DNA of 52,487 nt from Tricharina praecox (GCF_024521635.1 NW_026250462.1:1-52487); one strand, 5' to 3'; shown: positions 1 to 50,498, numbered from the stretch's first letter. Notes: generated from the sequence alone by a model not told the origin. Made by a program: numbers and translations.

Positions 1-1298
1 CTCATCCGCATCAAGGAAGGTAACAAATGAAAGACAGCTTTCCGCTGTCGATACGGACTATTCGAGTTTCTGGTCATGCCGTTTGGGCTGACCAACGCTC
101 CAGCGAGGTTTCAGAACATGATTAACCACATATTTCGGGATATACTGGACCTGGGACTGGCCGCGTACATCGATGACCTCCTCATCTATGCGAAGACGCA
201 GGAGGTGCATGACTAGATAGTCATCGAGGTACTAAAGAGGTTGGAAGAAAATAAGTTGGCAATCTCACCAGAGAAGTGTGTCTGGTCGACAGGGAGAGTC
301 ACGTTCCTAGGATACGTGATATCCCAAGATAGAATCGAGATGGCTAAGGACAAGGTGGAATCTGTACTCTCGTGGGAGGCGCCGCGGTCCCTCAAGGAAG
401 TACAAGCCTTTCTTGGGTTCGCCAATTTTTACGGGCGCTTCATCAAGGATTTCTCAAAGATCACGAGACCCTTGACCGAGAGCACAAAAGAAAAAGGCAA
501 ACATTGTAGATGGACAAGGGAGATGGAACTGGCCTTCGAAGAACTGAAGTCCAGGTTCACCACGGCACCGATTCTCGGGCTCTTCAACCCAGAATTACCT
601 GTGGTGGTGGAATCCGACGCTTCGGACTTCGCGTTGGGCGCGGTCCTGTCTCAAAGGGCAGAGGATGGGAAGTTACACCTGGTTGCATTCCACTCAAGAA
701 AGTTTACCCCAGCCGAAATAAATTTCGAGATTTACGATAAGGAACTACTCGCGATAGTAGACTCTTTCAAACGCTGGCGGCAATACCTTGAGCGAGCAAA
801 ACACCAGATCCAGGCGTACAGCGACCACCAGAACCTTGAGTAATTCACAACCACGAAGGTACTCAATCAACGGCAAGCAAGATGGGCACAAGAACTGACT
901 GGCATCGACTTCGAAATATACTACCGGCCCGGCAGCCAGAACGGCAAGCCGGACGCATTATCGAGGCGAGCGGAGTACCGCCCTGAAAAAGGCGGGGGTA
1001 AAGATCAGCCGATTACCACGATCCTGCATAAATCACACTTCGCAGACGGCGATTTAAGAGTAGTATCAATCAGCACCGGAGGCGAGAGCACCGTGTTCTT
1101 GGTTTCGTCAACCCGGCTATAAACAATCCCCATATCAAAGTGGAATGAAGAATTTCTGGGTTGGGCCACGAAGGCAGGAAAGGAAGATACTGGGTATCAG
1201 GAGGCTCTGAGTAGCATCATGGACACTAACAGGGACGCGGGTCAGAAGGACACTGAGCCGGAGGGCCGAAAGGCCTGAAAACTGGCCGTCAAGAGTAG
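1..1298 (+). mobile_element. Ty3/Gypsy copy A, degenerate pol fragment (RT, RNase H), cut by window start and by insertion of copy B
   Basis: [37 protein letters not shown] motifs; in-frame stops (e.g. 213-215, 841-843); colinear with copy D pol up to 1298. Confidence 0.95.
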
Positions 1299-1918
1299 TG
1301 TGAGACTGTAACGAGTTTGTGTCGTCGGAGTCTATGGCATTATCGAGTGTAGAATAAAAGTCAGGGATTTCGATAATTAACAACGGAATAATCTGAAGGG
1401 TGTTTCTTCGATGGTTTGTTCGGTGTAATGATTTGTGTTTTTGGTTCGGTTGCCCGCTTGGTTCGACTTATAGCCGTCCCGATCCTCAGCAGGTGATTCC
1501 TCTAGAGTGCGGCCTAACGTAGCTCCGTTGCTTCCCTTGGATAGGAATTCCGTGGCCTAGCCCTGAGTCGTCGTCAGCTCTCTTCGGATAGTCTTCTTGA
1601 CTAGGCAGGTGGTAAACACCACGCGCCCAAGATAGATCGGAGTTTCCGAGCATTTATCTTCCTCATGCGCCGGCAGAGTTCTTCGCTCGGAGTTCTCTGC
1701 CCCCGTAGGTCGATGTTCGATTCTCTCGTCATAACAGTTTTTCCCTGGATCGGAGTTCCTACTGCGAGGCCCCATGAACGGAGATCTCAAAGTCCTCTGG
1801 ACTGTTATCCCAATCACCCGCATCTGCGATGACTGTCTAGACTCTGGTATCCGTTTGCTTCCTCCTTCCTATCTTGTCCTTGATCGCTTCTAACCATCCT
1901 TCCGGCTCGTAACTCTAT

Positions 1919-2324
1919 TGTAATAAAGTACACTGGGAAAGTACTATACCACTTGACCAAAAGGTATTTTGATGACTGGCCATCATCCCAGTAGCTACTT
2001 AAGGTCAGGATTTCTGAACTATGACAGTATCCCCTCTTTAGGGGCTTACTACAGCAAGCCTTCAAGTAGTCAACCCCCAATGAGTGATATTTCATGATAC
2101 GAATCATAAACCATCACTCACTGTAAGCCATGCAATTCCTGAATAACGCTGCAGCAGAGGAATGTAACTGCTCGCAGTGAGAATTGAACTCATGACCTTG
2201 GCAGCCATCAAACAGTAATAAAGTACACTGGGAAAGTACTATACCACTTGACCAAAAGGTATTTTGATGGCTGAGGGCCCTCATCCCAGTGGCTGCCTAA
2301 GGCCAGGGTTGCTGAACTGTGACA
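1919..2324 (-). mobile_element. TRIM-like miniature non-autonomous LTR retrotransposon (406 bp)
   Basis: Direct repeats 1919-2026 and 2214-2324 (TG...CA; one terminal base mutated at 2214), perfect TSD TCTAT at 1914-1918/2325-2329, PPT AAAGAGGGGATAC (minus, 2027-2039), 187-bp non-coding interior. Confidence 0.93.
2169..2254 (-). promoter_or_regulatory. Putative split Pol III promoter: A box TGGTCAAGTGGTA (2254-2242) plus tRNA 3'-half with B box (2202-2169)
   Basis: Minus strand GCCAAGGTCATGAGTTCAATTCTCACTGCGAGCA has variable loop, T-arm (TGAG-TTCAATT-CTCA), 7-nt acceptor strand and discriminator A; resembles 3' half of eukaryotic tRNA-Ile(UAU). Confidence 0.6.
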
Positions 2325-2350
2325 TCTATTCCAATCACCCGGACTATCTA

Positions 2351-3705
2351 CATTGCTCTCGCCTCCGGTGCTGATTGTTAAAATTATCGAATCGCCGCCT
2401 TCAAAGTGTGATTTATGCAGGATTGTTGTAATCGGCTGATCTTCACCCCCCCCTTTTTCAGGGCGGTACTCCGGGCGCCTGGATAATGCGTCATGCTTGC
2501 CGTTCTGGCTGCCGGGCCAGTAGTAGATTTTGAAGTCGATGCCAGCGACCTCTTGTGCCCATCTGGCCTGCCGTCGATTGAGTACTTTCGTAGTTGTGAA
2601 GTACGCAAGGTTCTGGTGGTCGCTGTACACCTGGATCTGATGTTTTGCTCCCTCGAGGTATTGCCGCCAGCGTTTGAGAGCCTACTATCCCGAGCAGTTC
2701 CATATCGTGAATCTCGAAGTTGATTTCAGCTGGGGTAAACTTTCTTGAGTGGAATGCAACCAGGTGTAACTTCCCATCCGCTGCCCTTTGAGACAGGAAC
2801 GCGCTCAACGCAAAGTCCGAAGCGTCGGATTGCACCACGGCAGGTAATTCTGAATTGAAGAGCCTGAGAATCGATGCCGCGGTGAACCTGGACTTCAGCT
2901 CCTTGAAGGCCAGTTCCATCTCCCCTATCCATCTCCAATCTTTCCCTTTTTCTTTCGTGCTCCCGGTCAAGGGTCTCGTGATCTTTGAGAAATCCTTGAT
3001 GAAGCGCCTGTAGAAATTGGCGAACCCAAGAAAGGCTTGTACTTCCTTGAGGCACCGCGGCGCCTCCCACGAGAGCACAGATTTCACCTTGTCCTTAGCC
3101 ATCTCAATTCCATCTTGGGATATCACGCATTCTAGGAACGTGATGCACCGGGTACTGGTGACGCAGATTTTCTGTCCTTCATTCTTCCAGAACCCTGTCG
3201 GTTCACGCTTATCCATCCACCAATACGGGAGGTAGGCATCGCAGTCGTCTAAGGGAGCCACTTTGAAGGTTTCGTTGGTGTAGTGTCTCCGGTGTTGGAG
3301 GAGCATCGGCATTGTATAATATTCCCCGGCTCCTTCCACTATGGTTCCGTGGAAGTCCTTGATTTCTACCCGCTTGGGTCGTTGAATGAGGGGCAACCCA
3401 AGTTCTCGTGCCAGGCTTCGTTTGACGAGCGGAATGGCACATCCTGTGTCGAGGAGTACTCGGATCCGTCGTCGCTTGTGCTTGGACCAGAGGAGCATCA
3501 TTTCTATGATTGGTCGTGGTCCGCTGACAAGTTTTGGGGGCTCACAACCTGTGGCGCTCGGCTCGGTTGGACTCGTAGAAATCGGGTGGTCCGTCCGACT
3601 TCGCTTATCTCTGGATTGGCTATCGATATCCTGAGGCCGTGGTCTCTTCGTTCCGGAAATATATACACCTGGCTGCCCAATCTGCGGAGTGCTGGGGCCG
3701 TTCAA
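2351..3705 (-). pseudogene. Copy B pol remnant: aspartic protease fused by deletion to RT C-terminus/RNase H
   Basis: LLDTGCA protease motif; junction STRC|ITFL at ~3140 lacks RT core present in copy D; frameshift near 2680. Confidence 0.9.
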
Positions 3706-5361
3706 AAATCCTCTGGCTCGCTCTCATTCCTCTCCCAGAATGGAGGGGCCTCTGTCATTGCTACATCCACTACCATAACCGCCACAGCCTTGTGTTGATT
3801 GGACCTCAGTCGAGATGGTTCGGCATCCTGGGTGTCCCGCTTTCCCTTTGTCACGGACAACACCTTTGGACTCTCAGGTAGTCCGGTACCCGCGGCTGTT
3901 TTCCTGGCGTAGCATTGGAAGGTTCGGTGGCTGTCTTGTCCGCAATGCCAACAGTCGCACTTGGACGCTTTGTGCGCATCGGTCTCCTTCTGGTGAACCC
4001 ACACCAGAGCCTCTTTTACTACCGCGTAGATATCCCCTTCCCTTGTTTTCCCCTTCCTGGCCCTTGTTGCTTCCTTGGCCTTTCGGCCCTCCGGGGACTC
4101 CCCACTTTCCTTGCGGCCCCCGGGGTTTCTGCCCTTTCCTTGGCCCTGCCGGTCGTTGCCAGGTCTTTTCGGGTCGCCGCCGGAACCCTTGCTACCCGAT
4201 CCCCCTTTCCTCATTGCCCTTGCCTTTTTCAGTGCGCCCCGTCGTTCCACATGGTTCCCAGCCCTGAGCGCCGTTTCCAGGAAGTCTTCATCGTCTTTGT
4301 AGGGTTCGGTGTGCTGGTTAAAGCACATGTCGAGGATGTCGGTGGTCATCGCCTGGTTCACTATATCTTGTAGCGGTTTGCCGATGGCGCGAGCGACCAT
4401 GTTGAGCGATCAGAAGGAGGTAATATAAGCCTGAATGTCCCCTTTGTATTCGAGGGTCCACATCCTTCTTAATGCGTTCGCTCCTTGCTGCGTGTCACAG
4501 TACGCCTCCTTGAGTGCCTCTGGGTACGCCTGCCACGTATCTTCCAAGTGTAGCTGCCTCAAGCTTTTTCGACAGGCCTGGTGCCATTCTGCCGCTGTTG
4601 CTTCCAGTCGGGATCCCACCCACGCTATCTTCTGCTGCCCGTTTGTCCCTCGGTGGAACTCAAGATATTCTTCGACTGAGTCCCACCATGGACGGAAGGC
4701 TGTCCTCTGTTTGCCATCGAATGGCTTGGGCTCTTTCTTCTTAAGCTTGATGGCCCTCAGGTTCGATGCGGAGACAGCAGCAGCGATGATCCGAGCGAAG
4801 CGACTCTCCTCGTCTTCACCGTCTTCTCTTGATAGCGGGGCGTTTGGTGACGGGGCGGCAAACAACAAACAAGGGGATGCAATCGTCATCATCCGATGGT
4901 TCCTCATCCGAGGGATCACCTCCAAGCTTAGTCACCAGACATCTTGGGGGTGGAGGAGGAGGGGACATCCCTGCCCCTGCCGGAGTTTTCCTAGTTGCTG
5001 ATCTTTCTGCCCGCAATCCTCCTCTTGGGGTGGTGTTTACCCACTCTGGGGCCTTTTCGTTCGCCTTCCCTGTCCTTACCTCTACAGCCTTCAATTTTTT
5101 CTCCGCTGGAGCGATTTTTTCCAAGATTCGCTGTTGCTCTTTGTAGAGGTATTCCGCCTTCTCTTCCTGTTTCCCTGCCCAAATTTCCACGTTGCGGTTG
5201 TACACCGCTTGCTCCCTGCGGTGTTCGACTGGAGCGGTTTCGAGGGATACGATGGCGTCTTGTAGCCGAGCGTTTGCGACGCTTTGCAGCTCGCGGTTGT
5301 CTTCGTCCTTCTCGTTACATTGTCGAATGACTGCCCATACGTCGCTACTTAGGGCCTGCGT
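3702..5361 (-). pseudogene. Copy B gag (frameshifted, 5' truncated), CCHC zinc knuckle
   Basis: CWHCGQDSHRTFQC knuckle; ORF pieces 3702-4400, 4410-4925, 4816-5205 match gag of D and F. Confidence 0.9.
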
Positions 5362-6190
5362 GTTTCCCCATGTGGTTTTCTGAAACTCACGCAGGTAGTA
5401 GGATGAAGGGGATGCAGGGCTTCATCCACAGTTATCAAGTCAGGATAAAGGCAAGGACTTGGGCGCTGCGGGCCGAAGGCTCGTGGGAGGATAGATGGTG
5501 TGACACCCCGGTAGGTATCGGAGGACACGACGGTCGTAAGAGATGTGATCAGATAGTTTGGGTGATTAGAATAGAGTTGCGAGCCGAAGGCATAGTTAGA
5601 AGCGATCAAGGACAAGATAGGAAGGAGGAAGCCAACAGATTCCAGAGTCTAGACAGTGATCGGAGATGCGGGTGATTGGGATAACAGTCCAGAGGGCTTT
5701 GAGATCACAGATCATGGGGCCCCGCAGTAGGAACTCCGATCAAGGGAAAAACTGTTATGACGAGAGAATCGAACATTGACCTATGGGGGCAGACAACTTC
5801 GAGGGAAGAACTCTGCCGGCGCATGAGGAAGATAATTGCTTGGAAACTCCGATCTGTCTTGGGCGCGTGGTGTTTACCACCTGCCTAGTCAAGAAGACTA
5901 TCCGAAGAGAGCTGACGGCGACTCAAGGCTAGGCCGCGGGGAACTCCGATGCAAAGTAAGCAAAGGAGCCGCATCAGGCCGCACTGTAGAGGAATGACGT
6001 GCCGAGGATCGGGATGACTATAAGTGTCAAATCGAACGTGCAACCAAACCGAACACAATCATCGCACCAAACAACCATTGAAGAAACACTGTTAAGATTA
6101 TTCCGTTGTGAATCATCGAAATTCCTGAGTTTTATTCTATACCCAATAATACCATACACTCTGACGTCCCGAACTGGTTCCAGTGTCACA
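5362..6190 (+). mobile_element. 3' UTR, PPT and 3' LTR (5499-6190) probably of copy A
   Basis: Matches reverse complement of copy D 3' UTR; PPT GGGAGGATAGATGG before TGTGACACC at 5499; LTR ends GTCACA at 6190. Confidence 0.9.
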
Positions 6191-7635: not shown

Positions 7636-10600
7636 ATGTCATCTCTAGCTTTCACCGTTCCTTGGTGGCATCATACACCCCTCCACCTGCAAGCAACGAC
7701 GGCCACCCAACTTTCGCAGCCTAGACGCCGCCCTACTTCTGATGCGTGCCCACACTCAATCACAGGCAACCGACTGTTGTTTGAATGGAGGAAGCTGTCC
7801 CAACCCAGGTCTGCTCCGTGTCCGGCAGACGAAGATACCCGGTTCGATCAGGGAGGCGGAGCAACAAGCCTCTGACATCGCTGCAAGCCTCTGTACGCAT
7901 TTCGGGGTGGCGTGGGTTGCATGGCTGGTTCTGGAATGCTGCGCATTGCGGCTCCGGAGTTACAGCCGTCCCTACTCCGCCGTATGGCTAACCGTCAGCC
8001 TGCCGAAAATCTTCACAGAACTGCCCAATGGGCTCGTCCATGGCCATCCAACACCCCAGTACGTACTGGTACTGCCCGCTTCAGCTGCACGTCAGCTTGA
8101 CGTGAACTACTTTGCATTAACGTAAGCCACCTTAGAAGTGACTGCACGTACACTGCGCGCGATTCCGAAGGCTCAGCTGAAACGAATGAGCGGGGCTGTG
8201 AATGCAGCCTGGTCGGAATATGCATCATCGTACACAAATAAGTACCATACAGAGTGTGAATACCGGTATCACTTCAACTATTATTCAAAAGTCCGTTCCC
8301 AGCGCCCCTTCAAACAAACCCCCGTGGAGATTCCATCACATGATTCGATAGCGAGCTTGCAGCCCCAGGTAATAGTATCATATCCCCAGCCCCAAAATGC
8401 GGCTAACCGTAATAGACCTGCATGCTATGGACCCAACTCTGCCACACGTCACCCTCGCACATCACCCTACAGCTAAGTTAGATAACGCCCGAAACTGCTC
8501 GACAATCTTCCTTCGGTACCCCAAACCGCAACCCTCCAGCTTTGTTAGGCTCGATGCGTTAACAGTCGCCATTCATCATGACGTCGCATTACCGATCCGG
8601 GAACAGGCAGGTAAACTTTCGTGGAGGCTCAGGCGCTTTCGAGATCCTCGCTGTTTGGCCGGCTGACGATGACTTACCTACACAGCGGTCGAGTGAGCGG
8701 CACAACTCTACCATCGGGCCAGGTGCCCAACAGACTTACTTCAACGACGCAAGAGACAGCGGCAACACGAACGGCAGCTGGAATACGACAATCCGCAACA
8801 ACACGGAAAACTTTAGTAACAGAGTGAACAATTTCCGATCAGAAGGGCTGACGGTCGTTGGTTTGCGGCTAACTCGTACTCCTGAGCTGCCACATCGTGC
8901 AGGGCAACCGTTCGACTGACAGTCCGGCCCGCACCCGTTCAGGAAACGCCACAACGGTTGACTACACTCCACTGAACAAATCCACAGAGAAGGGTGGTAA
9001 GTAACATCCAAACGCTGACCTCCCTAAAACACTCTTACAAGGGCTAATCGGGTAATCTATGTACCAGTTTCCGGACCCCTCTTCAAGCCACCCTTGTGGG
9101 CGAATCCGGGCTTCGTCAGGAGAATGGATGCCCTAGGCCAACTCAGATGGCTATTAAACAGGGGAGGGCAACGACGGGCTGCATTATACGGGCTGGGAGG
9201 TGTTGGGTAAGGTCCCATTTCCAGAGACTCGGAGGTGCCAGCATGGGTGGCCCTGCATGCATGTCTGTCGATGTATGTTGTCAGATGGCAATCTAACTCG
9301 AGCAAAGGAAAACTACGATTGCGGTCGACTTCTGCCACCAGAGAAAGAAATTACAGCCTGACGACCACATCTTCTGGGTGCACTGCGACTCACATGAGGC
9401 CTTCAAGCACGGCTATCTGGAGATTGGGTGTCAAGCCGACATCTTAGGTGATCCGGGCGCCACTCGCGGTGAAAGCGGGTTAATGGGCGTCAAGAATTGG
9501 CTGGACAATCCTGCCAGCGGCAACTGGACCATGGTCATTGACAACTTCGACGAGGTCGACTCCTACCCGACGAGGTACCTTCCCGTCGACCGAGGCGCGA
9601 TCCTGTTTACAACTCGCGACGGAACCCTCGTCGGAAATCCTGCTGGGTATGTGCCCACTGGCGCTGGTGTCGACGTCAACGAGATGAGCGGCAGTGAAGC
9701 AATGGAGATGTTATCGAAACTGCTGGGCCTCGTTGGAACCGATGCTTCACTCTACTCTTCGGCTGCTTTCAAGCACATAAATATCTTACAGAAGCTCCCT
9801 CTGGCGATAGCGCAAGCGGCTGCGTGCATCCGAGCAACCCGAATGACCATCCCAGACTACCTGGAGTTGTTCCAGAGATGCGATCGCCACCAGCACGAGC
9901 TCCTGGAAGTATCCCGCGAAGAGCCCTTGGATCCTGCCGATCAAGGCTACGCCCGCCGGGCCTGCCCCCTCCCGGTGATGACGACTTGGAAGCTTACCAT
10001 CGACCGAATCCAGTGTAACAACCCTCGCTCCGTGCAGCTGCTCGAACTCATCAGCTTCCTCAGCCTCGACGACATACCGGTGAAACTACTGCGGGACACC
10101 CTGCACCTCCGTGACCAGAGCGACGTGCAGTTCCACATGGCCTTCGCCCCGCTTCTCAGTTTCTCGCTGATTCACCGCCTCGAATCGTCGAACTTTCGCA
10201 TGCACAGTCTCGTCGCTTTGTGCATCCGCAATCGAATCGCGTCGGACAACATCCAGCGGAGGGATTGGATTCTTGGTAGCCTCTATGGTCTATTGAGCGA
10301 TGGTTTCCCGCGGGGCATGCTAGGCAATCACATTCAGTATTTGCACCTGGCCACGCATGCGGCCGTCGCACTCGGGCATCAACAGAGCAGTCGCCATAGC
10401 TTCGGGTTCAACACGTTGCTACCGGATATGCTAGCCTTCTTTCTAATGAACATTGGGGATGCCGCGGGTTGCTTGCTATGGTATCAGCGGATACTAGACG
10501 GCGAAACAAAGGTCCTAGGAGCCGGCCACCTGAAGACTCCAGATACCGTCCACAACATCGCCGTCCTCTTCGAGATGTAAGGGGGTCATCGCACCGCCTT

Positions 10601-11344
10601 GGAGTGGTCCCAGCGAGCGCTCGCCAGGAAAGAGAAAGCGCTTGGGATGGACCACACCAACACACTGAACACCTTCGCCTGCATGGGGAACGCATTTGCG
10701 GGTTTAGGAGACAACCGCAGCGCCATGGAGTACTACCAGCGCGCCCTCTTCGGCTACGAGCGGACCCTTGGAAAAGCCCACCCAGTTACCCTCGAAACTG
10801 TGAACAAAATGGCACTTGCCGAAGCTGGCCAAGGGGAATACGGCAGCGCCCTGGTGTGGTACCAGTGTGCACTCGTCGGCAAAGCGAAGGCGCTCGAAAA
10901 AGACCACCCTATCACACTCAACACCGTCACGTGCATGGGTGCCGCTTTTGCGGGCTAGGAGACTACGGCAATGACAAGGAGTTCTACCAGCGCGCACTTG
11001 GCGGCTACGAGACGGCCCTCGGAAGAGACCACCCCGTGACTCTCAACATAGTCAACAACATGGCGCTTGCCGTTGCGCTCCGGGGAAACTATGCCGGCGC
11101 CCTGGCGCGGTACTAACGCGCACTTGACGGCAAGAAGACGATCTTTGGAAGAGACCACCCGAGGACTCTGGATACCGTCTACAACATGGCCAGCGTCTTT
11201 GCGAAGCAAGGCGCGTACGGCAAAGCTTTGCGGTCCTACCAGAGAACCATCGACGGCTACGAGGAGACTCTTGGGAAAGACCACGCCAAAACTATCAGCG
11301 CCGCTCAACAGGTGGATATCTACAGCCGGAGTATAAAACACTAG
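7636..11344 (+). pseudogene. Fungal NLR-like STAND gene (NB-ARC + TPR), disrupted; 5' boundary and N-terminal exons uncertain
   Basis: P-loop GLGGVG|KT split by intron 9207-9307; Walker B-like MVIDNFD; LPLAIAQAA; 42-aa TPR repeats; stops at 10578 and 11114, frameshift ~10950; terminal TAG 11342-11344. Confidence 0.88.
10470..11344 (+). repeat. ~7 tandem 126-bp TPR-coding repeats
   Basis: Recurring YQRAL.G.E..LG.DHP.TL.TV.NM units. Confidence 0.85.
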
Positions 11345-12960: not shown

Positions 12961-14801
12961 TCTCCTATATATGTAAGAGTATTGTGTCTTGAATTGGACG
13001 AGGGTGTACACACTAGGGGGGTTTCGCGGTCCCAGAGGGATCTCTGTGAGGCTGGTTGTTAGCGCGCCGAGCCCTCAGATGAAAAAAAGGAGGACCTTTC
13101 GCAACTCCAGGGTGCGGGCTGATCGAAACGGGACTACGCTAGGAATTAGCGGCTTAACTAGTGAAAACTCAGTAAAATTTCTCCGGGAGAACGGTTTGAT
13201 TCTACACATACATACGACAACTATGAGCGACAAGATTCTCCAGCAAACGGCAGCGGGCGCAGCGGGCGCGTCGGGCACAGCGCCTCCATGCGAGGTGGTG
13301 GTGGTGGAGAGGAGGGTTCCGGGCGCGGCGTATGGCGGCGGCGCCGAGAGGAGAGCGGAGTATGGCAGCGGTGCCGAGAGGATAGCCGAGCACAGCGGCG
13401 TGAGGAGAGCGGAGTTTGGCAGTATGGACAGGACTACACCAGCTGTCGGCCTTCCCTACCAGCCTTACCCACATCACCGCGCTGTCGATAGGAACTTCAA
13501 CAGATTTTCCAGGTCGGCTTTTCATTCTGCTCGCGACGGCATTCGCCAACATACTGATTGGTGTCAATCCAGCGTCAGCCACTCGTCACCCGGTTCAAGT
13601 ACATCATTGCCAGTGATGATCCCGTCCAGCCCGCCTATTACTCCCGGTCCGGAACTGCAAATCATCATAGAGAACACACCGAATCACGCAGCGAAAAGAA
13701 AAGTTCAGCTGAACGACGAGTTACGGCTGTCACTGGTTAAGTTGTGCCTTGCAAATCAGTCCGAGCATGTCTATGGCGGCAAGACGAATTTTTGGAAACG
13801 GATGTCGCATCTGCTAGAGCAAAAGACCGGTGTTAACCTCCGCGATCCCCGGAGTACTGTACACGATCTCGTTGCAGTGCGTAGGAGAGACATGGCAAGA
13901 GGCGGCAAGGAGTCGGAAACGGTCCAAGGGCTGAGCCAGGCGGTGGATCAATGGATGAAACATATCGATATCGAACAGCGGAAAATTGAGGATACGCAAA
14001 AGAGACTTAGGCAGTTGGCGCAGGAGAAAAAGGCTTCTGATATCAGGAGACGGAATCTGGTTTCAACGTTGTCCATGAAGCGAAGAGCGAGACCGGACGA
14101 TGGGGAATCAGAGGTGGAGATCATGAATGGTGATGAGTTTTCAGCGGGGATGAGGGCACAAAGGCTAAAGAGACGGAAGCAGTGTACAGCGGCTGCACCG
14201 GGTGCTAGCAGTACTGGGCTTGATCCCAATGTGCAGGCAATTCTGGGAGGTATGGCAGCGCTGGGTGACAAGATGATTCAGGCAATCGGTATCACTCAGC
14301 AGATTCAGCAGCGAGATTCGCAGATTGAGCAATTGCGGGCTGGACAAGCTGAGATGATGACAATGCTACGGGAGTTGAGGAATGAAAGGAATGAAAGGAA
14401 TGAAGGGAATTTGTAACTGGGCAAGCTGAGATCAAGGCAATGGGACGGGAGTTGAGAAATGGAATTATGGAAGGAATGAAAGGAATTTGTAATATAGGTA
14501 ATACATGGTGGAAACTGGGGGGTGAACGGGGTGATATTGCCATGATCTAGCTAGGTCGCATGCAATCAATGATTAGACAAAAAAAAAGGTACACCGACCA
14601 GATTTCGACACGCAGGAATGCGAAACTATAAGCAAGGTTTGTACTTACTCGGTATGACTGGGTGCTAAAAAACGATATGATATGGACAGCTATATAATAA
14701 CAGGGTGGGATAGACGAAATGTACTCAGAATAAGCTTAATAAACCCTTGCTCTGGTGCTGAGATCCCCGCCGCACCCAGCCGCGCGGGTGCACCACAACT
14801 A
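12961..14801 (+). mobile_element. Non-autonomous Helitron-like element
   Basis: 5' A|TCTCCTATATATGTAAGAG; 3' hairpin GCACCC-N8-GGGTGC (14772-14791) followed by CTA|T (imperfect CTRR); no TSD; no Rep/helicase ORF. Confidence 0.6.
13223..14416 (+). CDS. Intronless 397-aa protein with Myb/SANT(trihelix)-like domain and coiled coils
   Basis: ATG 13223 (MSDKILQQ); LNDELRLSLVKLC...FWKRMSHLL...VHDLV helical pattern; basic NLS-like stretches; C-terminal heptads. Confidence 0.7.
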   Translation: MSDKILQQTAAGAAGASGTAPPCEVVVVERRVPGAAYGGGAERRAEYGSGAERIAEHSGVRRAEFGSMDRTTPAVGLPYQPYPHHRAVDRNFNRFSRSAFHSARDGIRQHTDWCQSSVSHSSPGSSTSLPVMIPSSPPITPGPELQIIIENTPNHAAKRKVQLNDELRLSLVKLCLANQSEHVYGGKTNFWKRMSHLLEQKTGVNLRDPRSTVHDLVAVRRRDMARGGKESETVQGLSQAVDQWMKHIDIEQRKIEDTQKRLRQLAQEKKASDIRRRNLVSTLSMKRRARPDDGESEVEIMNGDEFSAGMRAQRLKRRKQCTAAAPGASSTGLDPNVQAILGGMAALGDKMIQAIGITQQIQQRDSQIEQLRAGQAEMMTMLRELRNERNERNEGNL

Positions 14802-25363: not shown

Positions 25364-27090
25364 TCAAACTTGACACAACCTCCCATCCTCCACTTCCCAC
25401 TCCTCGCTCCCCACTCCCTTCGTCGCATAAAACAATCCCGTCGGATCCCACGTATGCTTAACCTGCAGCAGGCGTTCATAGTTCGTCCCATGGAACGCAG
25501 TCTGCCAGTCCGGCTCCGTGAGTGCCGCTTCGGACTCTGTCACCCATTAGCCACCACCCATCACTATTTAAGGGAGGGGGGAGACGCACGATAACATCCC
25601 GCGCCCTTCGTCGCGTCGCGCACGGGCTGAAACACCTCATTCGCCCAGTCCCTCTGCTTTACGACCTGGTGCTCCGTCGAGTTCTCGGGAATGAGGTAGC
25701 CCGCGAGGATATGCATTCCGGCCCTCCTCCAGGCGGGATTGACCGCGTTGCCCTGTTCACCCTCGCTGCCGGGTGGCGGCGAAATGCCAAACACGGCGAA
25801 GTAGTACAGCTCGTCGGTGGCCGCGCGATACGCGTCCATGAACGTATCTAGTGTCGTGGAGTTCGTGAGCACGGCCGTCGGCACCAGCCGCGACACGCTG
25901 CCGGACATTATTCCCGCGACTTCGGTCGGGAAGGAGTTCCGCCAGGCGTCGAGGAAGCGCGGGTACTCCGTCGCGTTGGCGGAGTACGTGATGTTGTGTT
26001 CCCGCAGCGTGGCGTATAGCGGCGCGAGCTCGGTGTAGAGCCCCGCCGCGCTCATGTTCGGCGCCAGCACTGGCGTCGAGGAGAAGCTACCCGGCATGAT
26101 GTTGTTGTAGCTGTACACGCCCAGCGCACCCAGCCGTGGCGTGAGTGCAAAGAACTGCCGTACGGCCGCCCAGAACGCCTCCGTGTCCTCGGTCGCAAAC
26201 TGCAGCGGCATGGTGGTAACCATGCCATCCGCATGCGTCTTAACAACGACCTCGACGACCACGGCAAATACCCCGCCGCCCCCGCCCCTCAGCGCCCAGA
26301 ACAGCTCCCCATTCTCATCCCTTGCGCAGCGCCGCACAACGCCGTCCGCCGTAACCACCGTCATCTCGAGCACCTGGTCCGCAGCCATCCCGTACCTGCT
26401 CGTGAGCGGACTATGTCCTCCACCGGCTACATACCCGCCCGCGAACCCAACACTCGGCTGCTCACCCCCCACCACCACGCGCCCAACCGCCGCCGCTGCT
26501 TCGTATACAGACACGGTACTGACCCCCGCGCCGACACGCACCGCTGGAACCCCGGAGTACGACTCGAACTCGATACTACGCAACCAGTGCGTCCACAGCG
26601 ATAACGCATCCCGCCCCGTGCTCTTGCCGAAGAAGTCATGGCCAGTGTTTTTGACGACGAGGCGCAGGTCGTGGGCGCGCGCGAAGTTCACGCCGGCCTG
26701 CACGTCTGCTACGCTACTGACGTTGAGGACGTAGGCGGGGTAGTAGCCTAGTGTACACTCCCCCTCTGCGCCGGTGGACGGGGTGGATGGGAGGCAGGTC
26801 CGGTTGGTGAACAGTGGGGACATGATGGATGACGGGTGGGATTGGTGGGTCCATGCTGATGACCAGGCGGCTTGGAGGGCGGCGCAGGCGGTGCTGTTGT
26901 AGGAGCCCAGGGGCCCGTGGTGGCAGACGGAGGCGATTGGGATGGTCGAGAGGAGCCGGCCGGAGACGGTGCTGTTGAGGCTGGACCATTGTGCGGTGGT
27001 TGGCCAGGAGGCGTCGGAGGGGGAGGTTTTGCAAGAGGTCGCACTAGCGCCGAGCAACAGGCTCGCGAGGGAGAGGAGGTGCGGGAGCAT
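25364..27090 (-). CDS. Secreted FAD-binding PCMH-type oxidoreductase (berberine-bridge-enzyme-like)
   Basis: Signal peptide MLPHLLSL; VKNTGHDFFGKS; GGGHSPL; LFWALRGGGGG; BBE C-terminal exon WDP. Confidence 0.93.
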
Positions 27091-27498
27091 TGTGTTATGC
27101 TGCTGGTACCGTGGGATTTGGTGGAAGGGAAGACATGTCTTATACCTACCGCACCGCACCGCTTACACTGAGTACCGTACACCTATGGCAGGCAGTGGGA
27201 CGCGTCGCGATATCTCGATGTGGAATGTGGAATGTCAGGCACAAGGCGATTGATGAAGGCACGATGCACGGTGCTAGCGGGTTTCCAATAGCTGGTCGGA
27301 TGCCCGGCTAATCGGGTCGGGGATTGTGTTTCCCGGAGGTTGAGCTTGATCCCGGCGATGTCGAGTGATATATGTGAGGGGGTATCAGAACTCCATTCGT
27401 AAATAACACAAATGTTCACTACCGTACAAGTACACTCCGCATACATATAAAGAAAAAACACCCAACGCCCGTCTCCCACTCCATTAACCCCTCTTGAA

Positions 27499-30125
27499 TC
27501 AAGTATAAATACTCTCCGTAACAGCATTAAACGACAACCCCGGTTCCGCCATCTGCTCATCCTTGAGGAAGTCCAGCGGCATCCAGACGAGGTGACCGCG
27601 GACCTTTGCCATCTGATCCTTGATCTGCTGCGCCGTGTACTTGTCCATGTCCCAGATGTGACCGGCGGGCACCTGGTCGCGCTTCGGACAGAAGCTGTCG
27701 TAGTCTTTCCACGTTTTGACTGTGCACGTGTTAGTGAGAGGTAAGAAGGACAGGGGGAGGGGGGAGGGAGGGAGGGAGCGTACTGCAGTTGTCGGGATCG
27801 ACGTGGAAGAGGTCGTGGTACACTTTCGTGTTATCCGTGGCTTGGGTCGTCCACAGCTCCCACAGCTCATCGGACATGGGGTCCTCGACGACCGGATCTG
27901 CGTCGAGGCGGTTCGCGCCGTCACCTGGGGGCTGGGCGTTGGGATCGTCGCTGCCGTCGAGTAGTTGCGGCTTCAACAGACCGAGGTGCTCCATCCAGAG
28001 GTGTTTTCGCATCGACGAGACGGTGGGACCGTGTTCGACGACGGCGGATAGCTCCGAGTCGTGGTCGCCCTGCTGGCTGCGGTCGTTGATGTTGCTCGAG
28101 CCGACGACCATGACCTCGTCATCCGCGATGAGCACCTTCGCGTGGATGTACAGTTCCTCCTGGAAGAACCCCATCTTCTCGTGCTCCTCGCCGTCGTCCC
28201 ACGGTTCGTCGGCGATATTTGCCGTGCCCGCCATGGCGTCCTCGGCGACCGTATCCTTCGCCGGCGCATTCCCCTCGCCGGCCTGGACCTTCTTCCGTTT
28301 ATCCGCCGCCTCCTCCTCGTCGGACGAGCTCTCGGAGTCGTCGTGGCCCACCAGCATTGCCGGCGTGTGCGAGAGGATGTCGGGCCTGCCCTTGGTGCCC
28401 GCCACCTGCTCCGTATGCCCCGCCGTGGCGTCGTTGTACGTGACGCCCGTCTCCTTCTCACGCTTGCGCAGGCCCTCGGTGGTGTGCAGCCTGTCGTACG
28501 TGCGCAGGTTGAACACGAAGATGTACTTTGTCGGGTCGATGCCCTGGGCCTCGAGCTGGCCGTAGATGGAGTGTTCGCCGCGGTTGATGGACTTGTACTG
28601 ATAATCGATGATTGCTCTCGTGCCCAGCGCCGAGTCCTCCCTCAGATCGCCCGGGAAGCCGGGGATGGCCGGGATCAGGATGATGATGCGGAACTTCCTG
28701 TCCTCCTTGTGCGCACGCACGATCGCGTTTACGATGGCCCTTCCGATCTGGTTGTGCACGGGCTTCTGCTGGTCGCCCGTGGCGGTGATGAAGAACTGGT
28801 TCTCGATGTAGACGAAGTGCTGCGCGTTCTCGATGATGGACTTGTATGCCGTCTGGATGCTGTCGTCTTTGGGGAGGATGCCGTGCGACCAGTCCGCCGA
28901 CGAGCGCACGAGCTGCACCTTGCATGGCCCCCGGTTCTCGAGTGGGTACGAGCCCGCTTCGTGCAGCGGGTGCTGGATGTAGCCACCGAGCGGGAAGGAC
29001 GGGCGCTGCACGCCGGCTAGGCCGTCGGGGATCCCGCGGAGCTGCAGCCATGGCCGCCGAGTGTTGCGTTTGTACTTGTCGCGCTTCAGGAAATTCCACC
29101 GCTGTTGTCCTAAATTGTCAGCCATGACCACGACCATGATGATCCCGCGACCCGGAACCACCCCACGCGCGGAGACGTACCCCGACGAAATGATCCGCAA
29201 TACTCATCACGGCCGGCCCGACGATGCCCAAGCCGACATCGTGCCACGGCATGCGGCCATACTTTGTCTTGTCGAGCTGATTCGCCTTCCACTCCTGGAC
29301 GTTCTGAAAGTCCATGATGCGATTATTGTTAAAGTCCTGGCCGGGCCAGACCTGATCAGTGACGTCCTCTGGATGAGTGTCTGCGAGCGGGTGCTGATGC
29401 ATATCCCAACGGCCGAAGCAGAGATCCAAGCCGCCGATGAAGGCGACCTTGTGGTCGACGACGACGAACTTCTCGTGGTGCGCCCAGAAGAACGTGGGAT
29501 CCGCGCCGTGCAGGAACGGATCGTGGTCGGGGTGGCGGACCACAACGATATTCCCGTGGCCCTTGGTGCCATGCGGACACAGACTCTCGAGCGCCTTCTT
29601 CGTGTGCGCGCTGTTGCACGTGAGCGAGTAGGTGATCTCCTTGTAGACGGATACATAAATCTTGACGCCCTGCTCTGCCTTCCGCTTCAGCAGGCGGTCC
29701 AAGCGCCACTCGCTCTGCTCCGCCGGCGGCCTGCGCAGGAACAGCTCCGGCGACAGCCACCAGTCCTCGATGTAGACGCACTCTGTCGCGCGCTCGAGGG
29801 CGACGCTGACCGCCCAGAAGTAGTCGCGGCCGTCGACGTACCACTTGACGTCGTTCCCCTGGGTCTCGGGCGCAAACGACTTGTAGCGGTGCGAGTTTGC
29901 GATCTCCTCGCGCCGCCGGTCGATCGCTTGCTCGTGTGGCTCGTCGTGTCGGTGGTTCGGGTTGAAGATGTTCGCGAGCTTCCCCCAGGAGTTCTTTGCG
30001 TGCACGAGCTTGACTTTCACCGCGAAGAGGTGCGGGTGTTTGCTGTGACCGTCGTGGCCGGAGAAGTGCCCGTGCGCGAGCGAGGAGTCAGCCGCGCCGA
30101 AGCGCTCTTCTTTGTCGGCGGACAT
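27499..30125 (-). CDS. Phospholipase D (two HKD motifs, no PX/PH domain)
   Basis: HHEKFVVVD and HAKVLIAD...GSSNIND; YIEDWWLSPE; PWHD; YIENQFF; two introns. Confidence 0.96.
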
Positions 30126-41031: not shown

Positions 41032-41725
41032 TGTGAGACTGGAACAAGTTTGCGTCGTCGGAGTCTATGGTAGTATCGAGTGTAGAATAAAAGTCAGGGA
41101 TTTCGATAATTCACAACTGAATAATCTTAAGGGTGTTTCTTCGATGGTTTGTTCGGTGCGATGATTGTGGTTTTTTTGGTTCGATTGCACGCTCGGTTCG
41201 ACTGATAGGCGTTCCGATCCTCAGTACGTGATTTCTCTAGAGTGCGGCCTAACATAGCTCCGTTGCTTCCTTTGCATCGGAGTTCCGCGGCCTAGCCTCG
41301 AGTCGTCGTCAGCTCTCTTCGGATAGTCTTCTCGATTAGGCAGGTGGTAAACACCACGCGCCCAAGATAGATCGGAGTTTCCGAGCAATTATCTCCCTCA
41401 TGCGCCGGCAGAGTTCTTCGCTCGAAGTTGTCTGCCCTCATCGGTCGATGTTCGATTCTCTTGTCATAACAGTTTTTCCCTGGATCGGAGTTCCTACTGC
41501 GGGGCCCTATGAACGGAGATCTCAAAGTCCTCTGGACTGTTATCCCGATCTCCCGCATCTCCGATCACTGTCTAGACTCTGGAATCCGTTTGCTCCCTCC
41601 TTCCTATCTTGTCCTTGTTCGCTTCTAACTATCCTTTCGGCTCGCAACTCTATTCTAATCACCCGGACTATCTGATCACATCTCTTGCGACCGTTGTGAC
41701 CTCCGATACCTATCGGGGTGTCACA
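41032..41725 (-). repeat. 3' LTR of copy D (694 bp)
   Basis: TG...CA termini, adjacent PPT. Confidence 0.97.
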
Positions 41726-41867
41726 CCATCTCCCCTCCCACGAGGCTTCGGCCCAAAGCACCCAAGTCCTCGCCTTTATCCTAACTTTGATAACTGTGGA
41801 TGAAGTCCTCCATCCCCTTCATCCTACTACCTGCCCGAGTTCGAGAAAACCACATGGGAAAAAACTC

Positions 41868-44800
41868 TTACTCATCTGTGAGCCAGTAGTCCCTCGGCGC
41901 ATCGGGATTTTTGCCATGAAACTCGCGTAGCTCTTCCCGACCGCCTACTGAAAAGTTTTCGAATGGCTCGTTCGTCCAGTCCCGTCGTTCGGGGTAGTTG
42001 AGCCATTTCACGAGGTAGAGCACTCGTCGACATTTCTTCGAGCTGCCCATAACCTCATCGACGTCGTATTCTTCGTTGCCTTCCACATCATCGGCCGGTC
42101 GTAAGATTTGCGAGGTATCCGGTGGTGCTTGGGTGCCGGCTCGGAACGGTTCAACGAGCGAGACGTGAAAGACATTATGAATCTTCCACTTCCTTGGCAG
42201 AGTGACCTTGACAGCGAGCGGCGATACGATCTTCTCGATTTGGAAGGGACCATGGTTCTTGTGGTCCAACTTCCGCGAGGGTCGGCGGGTTTGAATGTTC
42301 TGCCCGTTGAGCATTACCAAGTCTCCTACTTGATAAGCCGGTGCCTCCTGACGATGTTGATCTGCATACTTGCGCATTCGTTCCCGCGTTCCTTCTAGGG
42401 TCTTGATGTTGTCCTCATGGACTGTATGCATCCAGTGAGCGTAGACCTTGCTGGCGGAGTTGAGAGAATTTGCCGCAGCAGGGTTTGTCGCCGACGGGTG
42501 ATATCCGAAATTCGCATAGAATGGTGACATTCCAGTTGCCGGTGTAACCGAGTTGTTGTAGGCAAACTCAGCCATCGGTAGGAGATTCACCCAACCGTTC
42601 TGTTCGTAGTTGACGAAGGAGCGGAGGTATGCTTCAATCGTGTGGTTGAGGCGTTCCGTTTGTCCATCCGTCTGTGGGTGGAACGCTGTTGACATCTGGG
42701 GCTTAATGCCTAGCAGCCTGATGAATTCTTTCCATGTACCCAAGGTAAACCTTGAGTCTCGATCCGACACTATGTCTGCTGGTAATCCGTGAAAGCGCCA
42801 TATCTCCCGGGCGAAAATCTTCGCGAGATCCTCGGCTATCTTTCCATCCTTAGGTAGGGGGATGAAATGCGCCATCTTGGTGAAGCGGTTGACGACCACC
42901 CATAGCTGGTCGCATCTGTTGGATTCCGGTAGGTCAGTAATGAAGTCTATGGCTATTGATTGCCATGGGGTGTATGGTAACTCGAGGGGATTGAGTAGTG
43001 CATACGGCTGGTGCCTTGTTGCTTTGTCCTTCTGACACTGCCCGCAAGTCCGGACGGAGTCTATAATCTGCTCGTCCATCTTTGGCGACCAGAAATTGCG
43101 TCGGATAAGTTCGATAGTCTTGTCCTGGCCCATATTCTCTGCGGATTTCGTATCGTGTTCCGACTCGAGGATGTGTCTGACGAGTTCCTTGTCGTCTGGT
43201 ACCCATAGCCTTTCTTTCCTATACAGGCACGCCTCTTCTATCCTCAAAATCCTGGCCTTTCGACCCATCCTGCTGGAGTCCCTACTCTCGGCGGCCAGTT
43301 CACAGGCCTTTCGGCCCTCCGACTCAGTGTCCTTCTGAGCCGCGTCCTCGTTCGTGTCCTTGAAGCTACTCAGAGCCTCCTGATACCCAGCATCTTCCTT
43401 TCCTGCCTTCCTGACCCAACCCAGAAATTCTTCATTCCACTTTGGCACGGGGATAGATTGTAGCCGAGTTGACGAAACCAGGAACATGGTGCTTTCGCCT
43501 CCGGTGCTGATTGATTAAACTCTCGAATCGTCACCTGCAAAGTGTGATTTATGCAGGATCGTCGTAATCGGCTGATCTTCACCCCCCCCTTTTTCAGGGC
43601 GGTACTCCCGGCGCCTGGATAATGCATCAGGCTTGCCGTTCTGGCTGCCGGGCCGGTAGTAGATTTTGAAGTCGATGCCAGCGAGTTCTTGTGCCCATGT
43701 CGCCTGCCGTCCATAGAGTACTTTCGTAGTTGTGAAGTACTCAAGGTTCTGGTGGTCGCTGTACACCTGGATCTGGTGTTTTGCTCCCTCGAGGTATTGC
43801 CGCCAGCGTTTGAAAGAGTCTACTATCGCGAGTAGTTCCTTATCGTGAATCTCGAAGTTGATTTCAGCTGGGGCAAACTTTCTTGAGTGGAACGCAACCG
43901 GGTGTAACTTCCCATCCTCTGCCCTTTGAGACAGGACTGCGCCCAACGCGAAGTCCGAAGCGTCGGATTCCACCACGACAGGTAGTTCTGGGTTGTAGTG
44001 CCCGAGAATCGGTGCCGTGGTGAACCTAGACTTCAGCTCTGCGAAGGCCAGTTCCATCTCCCCTGTCCATCTTCAATCTTTCCGTTTTTCTTTTGTGCTC
44101 TCGGTCAAGGGTCTCGTGATCTTTGAGAAATCCTTGATGAAGCGCCCGTAAAAATTGGCGAACCCAAGAAAGGCTGGTACCCTCCTTGAGGGACCGCGGC
44201 GCCTCCCACAAGAGCACAGATTCCACCTTGTCCTTAGCCATCTCAATTCCATCTTGGGATATCACGTATCCTAGGAACTTGACTCTCCCTGTCGCTCAGA
44301 CACACTTCTCTGGTGAGATTGCCAACTTATTTTCTTCCAACCTCTTTAGTACCTCGATGACTATCTTGTCATGCTCCTCGTGCGTCTTAGCATAGATGAG
44401 GAGGTCATCGATGTATGCGACCAGTCCCAGGTCCAACATATTCCGAAATATGTGGTTGATCATGTCCTGAAACTTCGCTGGAGCGTTGGTCAGCCCAAAC
44501 GGCATGACCAAAAACTCAAATAGTCCGTATCGACAGCGGAAAGCCGTCTTCTACTCGTCACCTTCCTTGATGCGGATAAGGTGATAGCCATTCTTCAGAT
44601 CAATCTTGGTGAAGACTTTCGCACCCCTGACTCGGTCTTGCAACTCTGCCATAATTGGGAGTGGGTAGCGATTGACTACGGTAATCTTGTTGATACCGCG
44701 ATAGTCGACACACAATTGGAGACCCCTGCCGTGCGCCTTTGGTACAAATAATATCGGCGCCCCGGCTGGTCATTTTGGATCTTCGAATCTTGCGTGTTTG

Positions 44801-45679
44801 GAGTATCTGCTTGAGCCACTCCCTGAGGGACTCAAGTTCTTTCTCTGACAGCGCATAGATAGGACCCCATGGAGGAGTCTCTCCTTCCTTGAGATCGATT
44901 GCGTGGTCGTAGGACTTGTGGTCGGGAAGCTTATCGGCTGCTTCCTTGCTCATGATGTTGGCATATCGTCTGAACTTCTCCGGAAGCAGATTCATGGGTG
45001 GATCTGATTCCGGGCCAGCTGAGACGTATCCAATAATGCGAGCCTCCGAATTGTGAATGACAGACGTGTCAAGTTCCATCGGAAAGCTGGTTGCTTGTTG
45101 CAAGGTGCATTGTTCCTTGCATCGGGTGCTGGTGAAGCGAATTTTCTGTGCTTCATTCTCCCACAACCCTGTCGGTTCATGCTTAGCCATCCACCAATAC
45201 GGGAGGTAGGCATCGCAGTCGTCCAAGGGAGCCACTTCGAAGGTTTCGTTGGTGTAGTGTCTCCGGTGTTTAAGGGGCATCGGCATTGTATAATATTCCC
45301 CGGCTCCTTCCACTATGGTTCCGTAGAAGTGCTTGATTTCCACCGGCCTGGGTCGTGGAATGAGGGGCAACCCAAGTTCCAGCGCAAGGCTTCGTTTGAT
45401 GATCGGAATGGCACATCCCGTGTCGAGGACTACTCGGATCCGTCGTCGCTTGTGCTGAGACCAGAGGAGCATCATTTCTATGATTGGTCGTGGTCCGCTG
45501 ACAGGTTTTGGGGGCTCACACCCTGAGGCGCTCAGCGCGGTTGGACTCGTAGAAATAGGTTGGTCCGTTCGTCTTCGCTTTTCTCTGGATTCGCTGTCGA
45601 CATCCCGAAGCCGTGGTGTCTTCGTTCCGCAAATATATACACCTGGCCGCCCAGTCTGCGGAGTGCTGGGGCCGCTCAA
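41868..45679 (-). pseudogene. Copy D pol (PR, RT, RNase H, integrase, chromodomain), with stops/frameshifts
   Basis: VLDTGCA, YIDD, ESDASD, IDFITDLP, VSDRD, GQTER, GPF, YLVKW motifs across five ORF pieces. Confidence 0.96.
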
Positions 45680-47677: not shown

Positions 47678-47715
47678 TTCGATAGAAATCTGTGACTGTA
47701 ACCTTAAGATTATAG

Positions 47716-48355
47716 TGTGAGACTGGAACGGGTTTGGGTCGTCGGAGTCTATGGTAGTATCGACTGTAGAATAAAAGTCAGGGATTTCGATAATTCACAA
47801 CTGAATAATCTTAAGGGTGTTTCTTCGATGGTTTGTTCGGTGCGATGATTGTGGTTTTTTTGGTTCGATTGCACGCTCGGTTCGACTGATAGGCGTTCCG
47901 ATCCTCAGCACGTGATTTCTCTAGAGTGCGGCCTAACGTAGCTCCGTTGCTTCCTTTGCATCGGAGTTCCGCGGCCTAGCCTCGAGTCGTTGTCAGCTCT
48001 CTTCGCATAGTCTTCTCGACTAGGTAGGTGGTAACTGGCAGAGGTCTTCGCTCAAAGTTCTCTGCCCCCATAGGTCGATGTTCGATTCTCTTGTCATAAC
48101 AGTTTTTCCCTGGATCGGAGTTCCTACTGCGGGGCCCTATGAACGGAGATCTCAAAGTCCTCTGGACTGTTATCCCGATCTCCCGCATCTCCGATCACTG
48201 TCTAGACTCTGGAATCCGTTTGCTCCCTCCTTCCTATCTTGTCCTTGTTCGCTTCTAACTATCCTTTCGGCTCGCAACTCGATTCTAATCAGCCGAACTA
48301 TCTAATCACATCTCTTGCGACCGTCGTGACCTCCGATACCTATTGGGGTGTCACA
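47716..48355 (-). repeat. 5' LTR of copy D (640 bp; 54-bp internal deletion)
   Basis: Matches 41032-41725 except deletion near 48034. Confidence 0.97.
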
Positions 48356-49769: not shown

Positions 49770-50461
49770 TGTGACACACCGATAGGTATCGGAGGTCACG
49801 ACGGTCGCAAGAGATGTGATTAGATAGTTCGGGTGATTAGAATAGAGTTGCGAGCCGAAAGGATAGTTAGAAGCGATCAAGGACAAGATAGGAAGGAGGG
49901 AGCAAACGGATTCCAGAGTCTAGACAGTGATCGGAGATGCGGGAGATCGGGATAACAGTCCAGAGGACTTTGAGATCTCCGATCATAGGGCCCCGCAGTA
50001 GGAACTCTGATCCAGGAAAAAACTGTTATGACGAGAGAATCGAACATCGACCGATGGGGGCAGACAACTTCGAGCGAAGAACTCTGCCGGCGCATGAGGG
50101 AGATAATTGCTCGGAAACTCCGATCTATCTTGGGCGCGTGGTGTTTACCACCTGCCTAGTCGAGAAGACTATCCGAAGAGAGCTGACGGCGACTCAAGGC
50201 TAGGCCGCGGAACTCCGATGCAAAGGAAGCAACGGTGCTACGTTAGGCCGCACTCTAGAGGAATCACGTGCTGAGGATCGGGACGACTATAAGTCGAACC
50301 GAGCGGGCAACCGAACAAACTACAATCATCGCACCGAACAAACCATCGAACACAACACCCTTAAGATTATTCCGTTGTGAATTATCGAAATCCCTGACTT
50401 TTATTCTATCCTCGATTTTACTATAGACTCCGACGACACAAACCCGTCCCAGTCTCACACT

Positions 50462-50473
50462 ATAATCTTAAGG
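50462..50473 (+). promoter_or_regulatory. Self-priming PBS ATAATCTTAAGG
   Basis: Exact complement of LTR 50359-50370; same pair in copy D (47702-47713 / 47805-47816). Confidence 0.8.
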
Positions 50474-50498
50474 TTACAGTCACCGATTTCTATCGAAA

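Follow-up and report, generated by a model that had tools for sequence, protein, structure and literature searches.

In the definition of the terminal-repeat retrotransposon in miniature (TRIM) quoted in PMC6934838, the primer-binding site (PBS) of such long terminal repeat (LTR) elements is complementary to a tRNA, and TRIMs are routinely annotated as a class in ascomycete genomes, to judge from the entries of the literature listing. Another way of priming is described for the Tf1/sushi group: in the sections of PMC7175516, PMC4600332 and PMC10085805 on Tf1, Tf2, Tj1, Maggy, Skippy, Cft-1 and Boty, an 11-nt stretch of the 5' LTR complements the PBS just past the LTR, and inside the duplex lies a U5 stem-loop to which the LTR end next to the PBS contributes. 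The first 11 nt of Tf1 pair with the PBS and RNase H cuts between nucleotides 11 and 12 (PMC7175516, in its account of the Tf1 primer), and the Tf1 "pretzel" combines this central primer-PBS duplex with duplexes of PBS-adjacent sequence with the LTR downstream of the primer (PMC10085805, in its description of the fold). Among ascomycete Tf1/sushi elements, self-priming is reported for Maggy, Skippy, Cft-1, Boty and Afut1 in the part of PMC6934838 devoted to them. Here we describe a 406-bp element in a stretch of 52,487 nucleotides from Tricharina praecox (NW_026250462.1:1-52487; "the window" below means this whole stretch), which has the body of a TRIM and a PBS complementary to its own LTR. 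We consider it probable that this is a self-priming TRIM, with its sense strand on the minus strand, which was inserted by an integrase into an older Ty3/gypsy-type LTR and is primed in the Tf1/sushi manner.

The element is a genuine TRIM. It is shorter than 1 kb, has terminal direct repeats of ~110 bp (108 and 111 bp) with TG..CA ends, in the TRIM range of about 100-250 bp, and a 5-bp target site duplication (TSD), and its internal domain has the PBS first and a polypurine tract (PPT) last. No open reading frame (ORF) and no gag-pol is present in the 406 bp, so that the element has no coding capacity, lacks the gag-pol of a chromovirus and, as other TRIMs do, would depend on a helper. It differs from the quoted TRIM definition in that the PBS complements its own LTR and not the 3' end of a tRNA. 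All of the anatomy proposed in an earlier reading of the same DNA (hereafter the original prediction), namely LTRs of ~110 bp, a TSD, a PPT, a PBS-LTR complement and two putative promoter boxes, was recovered in place (Table 1). The LTRs differ at 12 of the 110 columns of their alignment (89% identity), the 5' LTR terminates in CT where other copies have CA (position 2214, in contigs from public sequencing runs), and the primer counterpart in the 3' LTR is mutated; the copy in the window is therefore old, mutated and probably dead. The LTR differences cluster in the U3 half, whose 51 nt (1978-2026 versus 2276-2324) hold 8 mismatches and a 3-nt gap, with only 1 mismatch in the 59 nt of the R-U5 half. 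G-to-A and C-to-T are the changes private to the left LTR, a pattern that may stem from repeat-induced point mutation.

The sequence interrupted by the element is a repeat of ~693 bp, of which the window holds four further copies adjoining Ty3/gypsy-type reverse transcriptase (RT)/RNase H fragments. All four (4/4) are uninterrupted, with AACTCTAT running directly into TCTAATCACCCGG and a single TCTAT at the insertion point, whereas the interrupted repeat reads AACTCTAT, the element and then TCTATTCCAATCACCCGG. Because these paralogous empty sites are uninterrupted, the 5-bp duplication is proven. The target of this long-past insertion was the LTR of an older Ty3/gypsy-type element, and the host repeat extends as far as ~2353, at which point an inverted RT fragment starts. 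Comparison of the window with itself revealed no second copy of the element, no similarity to the other repeats of the window and, for the internal region (2027-2201), no similarity to anything else in it.

Ten public sequencing runs share words with the window (best share 0.21), and four of them, X1, X2, X4 and X8 from 3 studies, gave 156, 10, 409 and 8 contigs, respectively, when aligned to the window at a likeness of at least 80%. Contigs of X1 diverge into unlike flanks exactly at 1918/1919 (9 contigs), 2026 (6), 2215 (7) and 2324 (6). Since the divergence falls exactly at the LTR ends, the LTR boundaries are real, and the family is multi-copy and extends beyond one locus; moreover, the agreement of ~0.5 among the diverging flanks points to many different loci. 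The uninterrupted host site is found in contigs of X2 (one) and X4 (two), and X8, a run labelled as another organism, contains the element, with zero depth over the flanks in the host repeat; that X8 is RNA is a guess, and neither start nor strand can be read from its contigs. In X1 and X4 the LTR bins are several-fold deeper than the internal bins, which indicates solo LTRs, another likeness to TRIMs. LTRs and internal region thus occur in differing flanks in four runs from three studies, as in a multi-copy mobile family, and the many copies and solo LTRs in these contigs bear out the LTR-element part of the original prediction, which had been staked on the existence of further copies. Joints in X1 and X4 also include one contig variant with an internal deletion from 1970 to 2102, one with 2099-2205 swapped for 11 letters, and an LTR-LTR junction, 2029 being joined back to 1919, whose repeats are just 4 nt apart. 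In a scan of metagenome contigs with an LTR-end plus PBS pattern, 47 loci were found, but BLAST with the element gave nothing beyond 20-29-nt matches around the pattern, and these in only 4 of the 47, and the loci are therefore not real copies.

The PBS is complementary in 11 of 11 positions to a segment of the element's own 5' LTR (2273-2263), as the original prediction had stated and the repeat search returned. None of 20,000 shuffles of the LTR reached an 11-nt complement to the 15 nt that follow it, and a complement of at least 11 nt was found at 11 of 14,962 mock junctions taken from across the window. In the four runs, where variable places were listed only at a share of at least 10%, no variant is listed in either the PBS (2202-2212) or the primer (2263-2273), both of which have coverage, compared with 23 variable places over 2027-2262. 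At 1975, the prevailing letter in other copies re-establishes the match of the 3' LTR primer to the PBS, with a depth of 220.4 of 227 in X1, 101.9 of 133.1 in X4 and 16.8 of 16.8 in X8. The PBS has no TGG on direct reading, so the 3' end of a full-length tRNA is not the primer, and no tRNA gene was called in the window or in the element by ARAGORN at its default settings. With the complementarity, the fold described below and the lack of listed variants at either site, the PBS is best read as the target of a Tf1-type self-primer, and the element is likely self-priming, as the original prediction had held.

The predicted RNA folds are consistent with such priming. In the fold of 2273-2195 (79 nt), an 11-bp primer-PBS duplex lies around the U5 stem-loop, and none of 200 shuffles is as stable (z -4.61); the inner 50 nt of the U5 fold alone give z -2.52, a stability that 4 of 200 shuffles attain. 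Of the three "pretzel" duplexes two are predicted, the central primer-PBS duplex and the one between U5 and the LTR end, and the element would hold everything that self-priming needs in cis within ~115 nt. Among the family variants that fall on predicted pairs, some keep the pairing and others break it, in contigs in which haplotypes are not phased. The internal region (2027-2201) is also strongly folded (minimum free energy -64.8 kcal/mol, z -4.43, 0 of 200 shuffles as stable). Its minus strand has three strong predicted stem-loops, including a 21-bp imperfect hairpin at 2078-2123, and these might form a packaging or dimerisation signal.

A self-priming TRIM of this kind would have been inserted as a 406-bp element into the older LTR by an integrase. 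Its RNA, for which RNA polymerase II would be the default polymerase, would start at ~2273, which would divide the 5' LTR into U3 (2324-2274) and R-U5 (2273-2214). The first 11 nt of the RNA would fold back on the PBS, 1 nt past the 5' LTR, with the U5 stem-loop enclosed, and the RNase H of a helper element would cut after nucleotide 11 and free the primer. An autonomous self-priming chromovirus outside the window would supply the proteins. The Ty3/gypsy copies of the window were rejected as this helper: they have different LTR ends, share no PBS or internal sequence with the element and have no self-complementary PBS, no complement of at least 8 nt being found between their own PBS region and LTR. 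The likeness seen to named members of the Tf1/sushi group is one of layout, with the RNA start and the cut of the element predicted; the element has no gag-pol and measures 406 bp versus ~5 kb, and the third "pretzel" duplex is unsupported. It would be at most a non-autonomous dependant of the Tf1/sushi chromovirus clade.

Table 1. Features of the self-complementary TRIM and of its insertion site in the window
Feature	Position	Strand	Description	Basis
Whole TRIM element	1919-2324	minus	406 bp, non-coding	
5' LTR	2214-2324	minus	111 bp, starts TGTCA	repeat search and reading; contigs of other loci diverge at 2215 and 2324
Self-primer	2263-2273	minus	CAGCCATCAAA, within 5' LTR; presumed first 11 nt of RNA	
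A-box-like motif	2244-2254	minus	TGGTCAAGTGG (TGGTCGAGTGG in most other copies); overlaps U5 stem	motif
Longer A-box match	2254-2242	minus	TGGTCAAGTGGTA	direct reading
U5 stem-loop	2214-2248	minus	AGUGGUA.AGUAC ... GUACU.UAUUACU, inside primer-PBS duplex	predicted fold
Single G between 5' LTR and PBS	2213	minus		direct reading
PBS	2202-2212	minus	TTTGATGGCTG, 1 nt past 5' LTR	exact reverse complement of CAGCCATCAAA
Internal region	2027-2201	minus	175 nt, non-coding, three predicted stem-loops	fold
T-arm-like hairpin	2177-2193	minus	TGAG/TTCAATT/CTCA; contains B-box-like AGTTCAATTCT at 2190-2180	
T-arm-like hairpin with CTGCGAGCA	2193-2169	minus	CTGCGAGCA directly after the hairpin	
PPT	2030-2039	minus	AAAGAGGGGA, then TAC, then 3' LTR (3-nt gap)	direct reading
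3' LTR	1919-2026	minus	108 bp, TGTCA...TTACA	contigs of other loci diverge at 1918/1919 and 2026
Self-primer counterpart in 3' LTR	1968-1978	minus	CAGTCATCAAA, mutated here	repeat search
TSD, left	1914-1918		TCTAT; minus strand reads ATAGA	
TSD, right	2325-2329		TCTAT; minus strand reads ATAGA	
Host sequence	1296-1918; resumes 2325-2353	plus	fragment of ~693-bp LTR (TGTGA...TCACA) of older Ty3/gypsy-type element	

Besides the priming signals, the sense strand carries both the A-box-like TGGTCAAGTGG and the B-box-like AGTTCAATTCT, the latter within the T-arm-like hairpin, and the original prediction had read these as the parts of a tRNA-derived promoter. The chances seem to us about even that the resemblances are coincidental or structural by-products in a dead relic, in which the stems would serve reverse transcription or packaging only and nothing would be tRNA-derived. 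Each of the motifs is common by itself: in the 105 kb of both strands of the window there are 24 A-box and 4 B-box matches to the strict consensus (TRGCNNAGTGG and GGTTCRANTCC, at most 1 mismatch), as well as 12 T-arm-like hairpins (4-bp stem with TTCRA loop). No A/B pair exists in the window under the strict definitions, because the B box of the window copy carries 2 mismatches to the 11-nt consensus, a level at which 75 matches occur per 105 kb. No model recovers a tRNA: the Rfam tRNA model has no match at E <=10 on 6 kb, 441 nt or 103 nt, and direct reading around the boxes gives no acceptor, D or anticodon pairing. What had been called a tRNA 3' half with a B box is thus retained as a T-arm-like hairpin and a box, while its tRNA identity is supported by neither ARAGORN nor Rfam. 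The strong overall structure of the internal region and the 12 of 110 differing LTR columns also fit by-products in a relic.

Two observations argue against such a coincidence. Under a relaxed definition (TRGYNNAGTGG, then GTTCRANNC 30-90 nt on), which was loosened at tRNA position 11 and at the last C and chosen after the sequence had been seen, the element contains the only pair on either strand of the 52-kb window, and of 300 block-shuffled windows no more than 2 contain one. It is thus rare for both boxes to occur together on the sense strand, spaced as in a tRNA gene and at the right distance from the primer. Moreover, the majority letter at 2180 in other copies makes the box end in CC, which gives the canonical GTTCAATTCC (…TTCC), and the same letter weakens the hairpin stem by turning one of its pairs into A·C. 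The promoter motifs of the original prediction therefore survive as the sole relaxed pair of the window and fail as a strict one.

These same observations could be explained, though this seems to us unlikely and on present sequence a tentative reading, if RNA polymerase III (Pol III) transcribed the self-priming TRIM from a type-2 promoter split between U5 (A box, 2254-2244) and the internal region (B box, 2190-2180), starting at 2273. With one box in the LTR and the other in the internal region, only the 5' LTR would have the complete promoter. The first base of the primer lies 19 nt before the start of the A box, as the original prediction had noted, and 19 nt is the distance expected between the start and the A box of a yeast tRNA gene. 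The U3 is only 51 nt long and has no TATA on direct reading, and the variable places 2249 and 2250 sit on the N positions of the A box. TRIMs with tRNA-type or 5S-type Pol III promoters exist, fungal ones included, in the families covered by PMC10886601. The sole Rfam match nearby, a weak one to Plastid-ycf2 on the plus strand (16.8 bits, E 0.24), has a consensus resembling an antisense tRNA 3' half.

On the other side, the pair is rare only under motifs relaxed post hoc, with none at a strict limit of 1 mismatch. The U5 stem accounts equally well for the letters of the A box, whose N positions are also those left unpaired between two helices, and a diverged LTR variant loses the invariant A-box G at 2245 while improving a stem pair from G-U to A-U. 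When the internal region is folded as a whole, the letters of the B box find their partners at 2140-2126 and not in the T-arm hairpin. With the threshold of ARAGORN lowered to 80% and introns allowed, two calls fall in the element, in line with the background of 99 calls in 52.5 kb (1.9 per kb). One of the two, a "tRNA-Ser with a 45-nt intron" at 2299-2170 in which the primer-PBS duplex serves as anticodon stem, was rejected because such calls occur 99 times in 52.5 kb. It is also not obvious how a piece derived from a tRNA could have ended up spanning the LTR end and the PBS. Termination gives a divided answer. Nowhere on the sense strand of the element do 5 or more T follow one another, as had been claimed in favor of a Pol III transcript, but a TTTT lies at 2257-2254, that is, at +17 to +20 from the proposed start (16-19 nt after it), and recurs in the 3' LTR. 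Termination by Pol III in fission and budding yeast requires at least 5 T; the TTTT would therefore be a weak terminator, yet the element would also hold no terminator inside it.

For the self-priming TRIM itself, several results weigh against the reading that we prefer. The third "pretzel" duplex (ACCUUUUGG with CCAAGGU) reaches only -5.7 kcal/mol, and 36% of 2,000 shuffles are as good. No covariation between primer and PBS is present in the contigs of the public runs; because neither sequence varies, their pairing is backed by conservation and lacks the proof that compensatory changes would give. Knowledge of the other copies comes from contig tables and not from aligned full sequences, and contigs drop rare variants. 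No autonomous partner was found in the window. A further objection, that the TRIM is primed by a cleaved host tRNA carrying ...CAGCCAUCAAA in its anticodon arm, in the way of fungal Helenus and of Copia-type elements with a PBS matching the anticodon-loop region, and that the LTR match is incidental or a tRNA-like legacy, would suit a PBS without TGG whose complement can be read, as a candidate, as one 5-nt strand of a stem followed by a loop that has U at its invariant position and CAA as anticodon, but it is very improbable, given that an exact 11-nt complement at a sensible U3/R position of the own LTR is very unlikely by chance, that the LTR letters after CAGCCATCAAA do not close an anticodon stem, and that the layout is unlike Helenus, for which Kojima (2024) describes PBSs matching tRNAs, in fungi mostly at the anticodon loops, with no LTR-PBS complementarity in that description (PMC10886601).

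Helenus nevertheless resembles the element in other respects. As presented in PMC10886601, the Helenus elements of fungi are likewise TRIMs of about this size that make a 5-bp TSD, and they too bear A-box-like and B-box-like motifs on their sense strand and so may have a Pol III promoter. The two differ in that a whole tRNA-like sequence with both boxes lies in each LTR of Helenus (PMC10886601, same presentation), whereas the LTR of our element has only the A-box-like motif and the B-box-like one is internal. The element's LTR contains no GGTTC, so the pair of tRNA-derived A and B boxes that marks a Helenus LTR is absent from it. Because no tRNA-like sequence with both boxes is held in the LTR, while the PBS complements the LTR, the element is not a Helenus. 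In addition, the fungal families presented in PMC10886601 come from Pucciniales and a few Agaricomycetes, whereas the window looks ascomycete. Cassandra and Ajax are likewise miniature LTR elements for which an internal Pol III promoter has been proposed or shown, and according to the same overview of them their promoter is 5S-derived and wholly within the LTR, and their PBS matches a tRNA (PMC10886601). The element has no match to the Rfam 5S model at E <=10 and is not a Cassandra or Ajax, because it has no 5S piece. The original prediction was thus right to set it apart from both, whose small-RNA piece, in the families so described, lies wholly in the LTR (PMC10886601). As to the TRIMs with a Pol III promoter (TRIMp3), an A/B pair is present in the element, rare under the relaxed definitions and absent under the strict ones.

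The TRIM lies in one of two regions of the window, 1-6190 and 41032-52487, that are made up of copies of a single Ty3/gypsy-type element, nested and in part inverted and truncated, with gag-like ORFs, RT_RNaseH_2 and RT_RNaseH domains and the ~693-bp LTR (TGTGA...TCACA). These copies are 80-97% identical among themselves, and the varying orientation of LTR to internal sequence among them suggests rearrangements. A 15-nt direct repeat, TATTCCAATCACCCG / TATCCCAATCACCCG, occurs inside the host LTR at 2327-2341 and 1806-1820; one of its copies abuts the right end of the TRIM, and it belongs to the host repeat and not to the TRIM. In the leader of a host gypsy copy, just downstream of the LTR, a near-perfect hairpin (CCTGCGTG...CACGCAGG) is found at 5346-5404, with weak, chance-level matches to microRNA models on both strands. 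Elsewhere the window has ordinary fungal-type genes at 9297-10580, 25564-27162 and 27731-29203 (a DUF7779 ORF, a FAD_binding_4 (BBE-like) oxidase ORF and a PLD-like ORF), and tandem or near-tandem repeats at 10591-11287, 14340-14492 and 48442-48611. One of the genes resembles ascomycete FAD-binding/BBE proteins, and the host genome looks, from such sequence, like that of an ascomycete.

TRIMs and self-priming are each known, and their combination in one element is apparently undescribed: a full-text literature search, with Repbase/Dfam and the supplements of the Helenus paper outside its scope, returned no description of a self-priming miniature non-coding LTR element from fungi, and what it did return brings up self-priming only in a discussion section. 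The element would offer a compact natural substrate on which to dissect self-priming and a lead to the helper chromovirus. Were the promoter truly split and used by Pol III, it would be a new way for an LTR element to confine transcription to full-length copies: only the 5' LTR of a full copy would work as a transcription unit, with solo LTRs silent and Pol III starting at the first base of the primer. It would then also represent a third TRIMp3 architecture beside Cassandra/Ajax and Helenus, and the first in ascomycetes. If the split promoter is not real, the element serves as a warning that the RNA structures of a reverse-transcription leader can mimic an A box and a B box.

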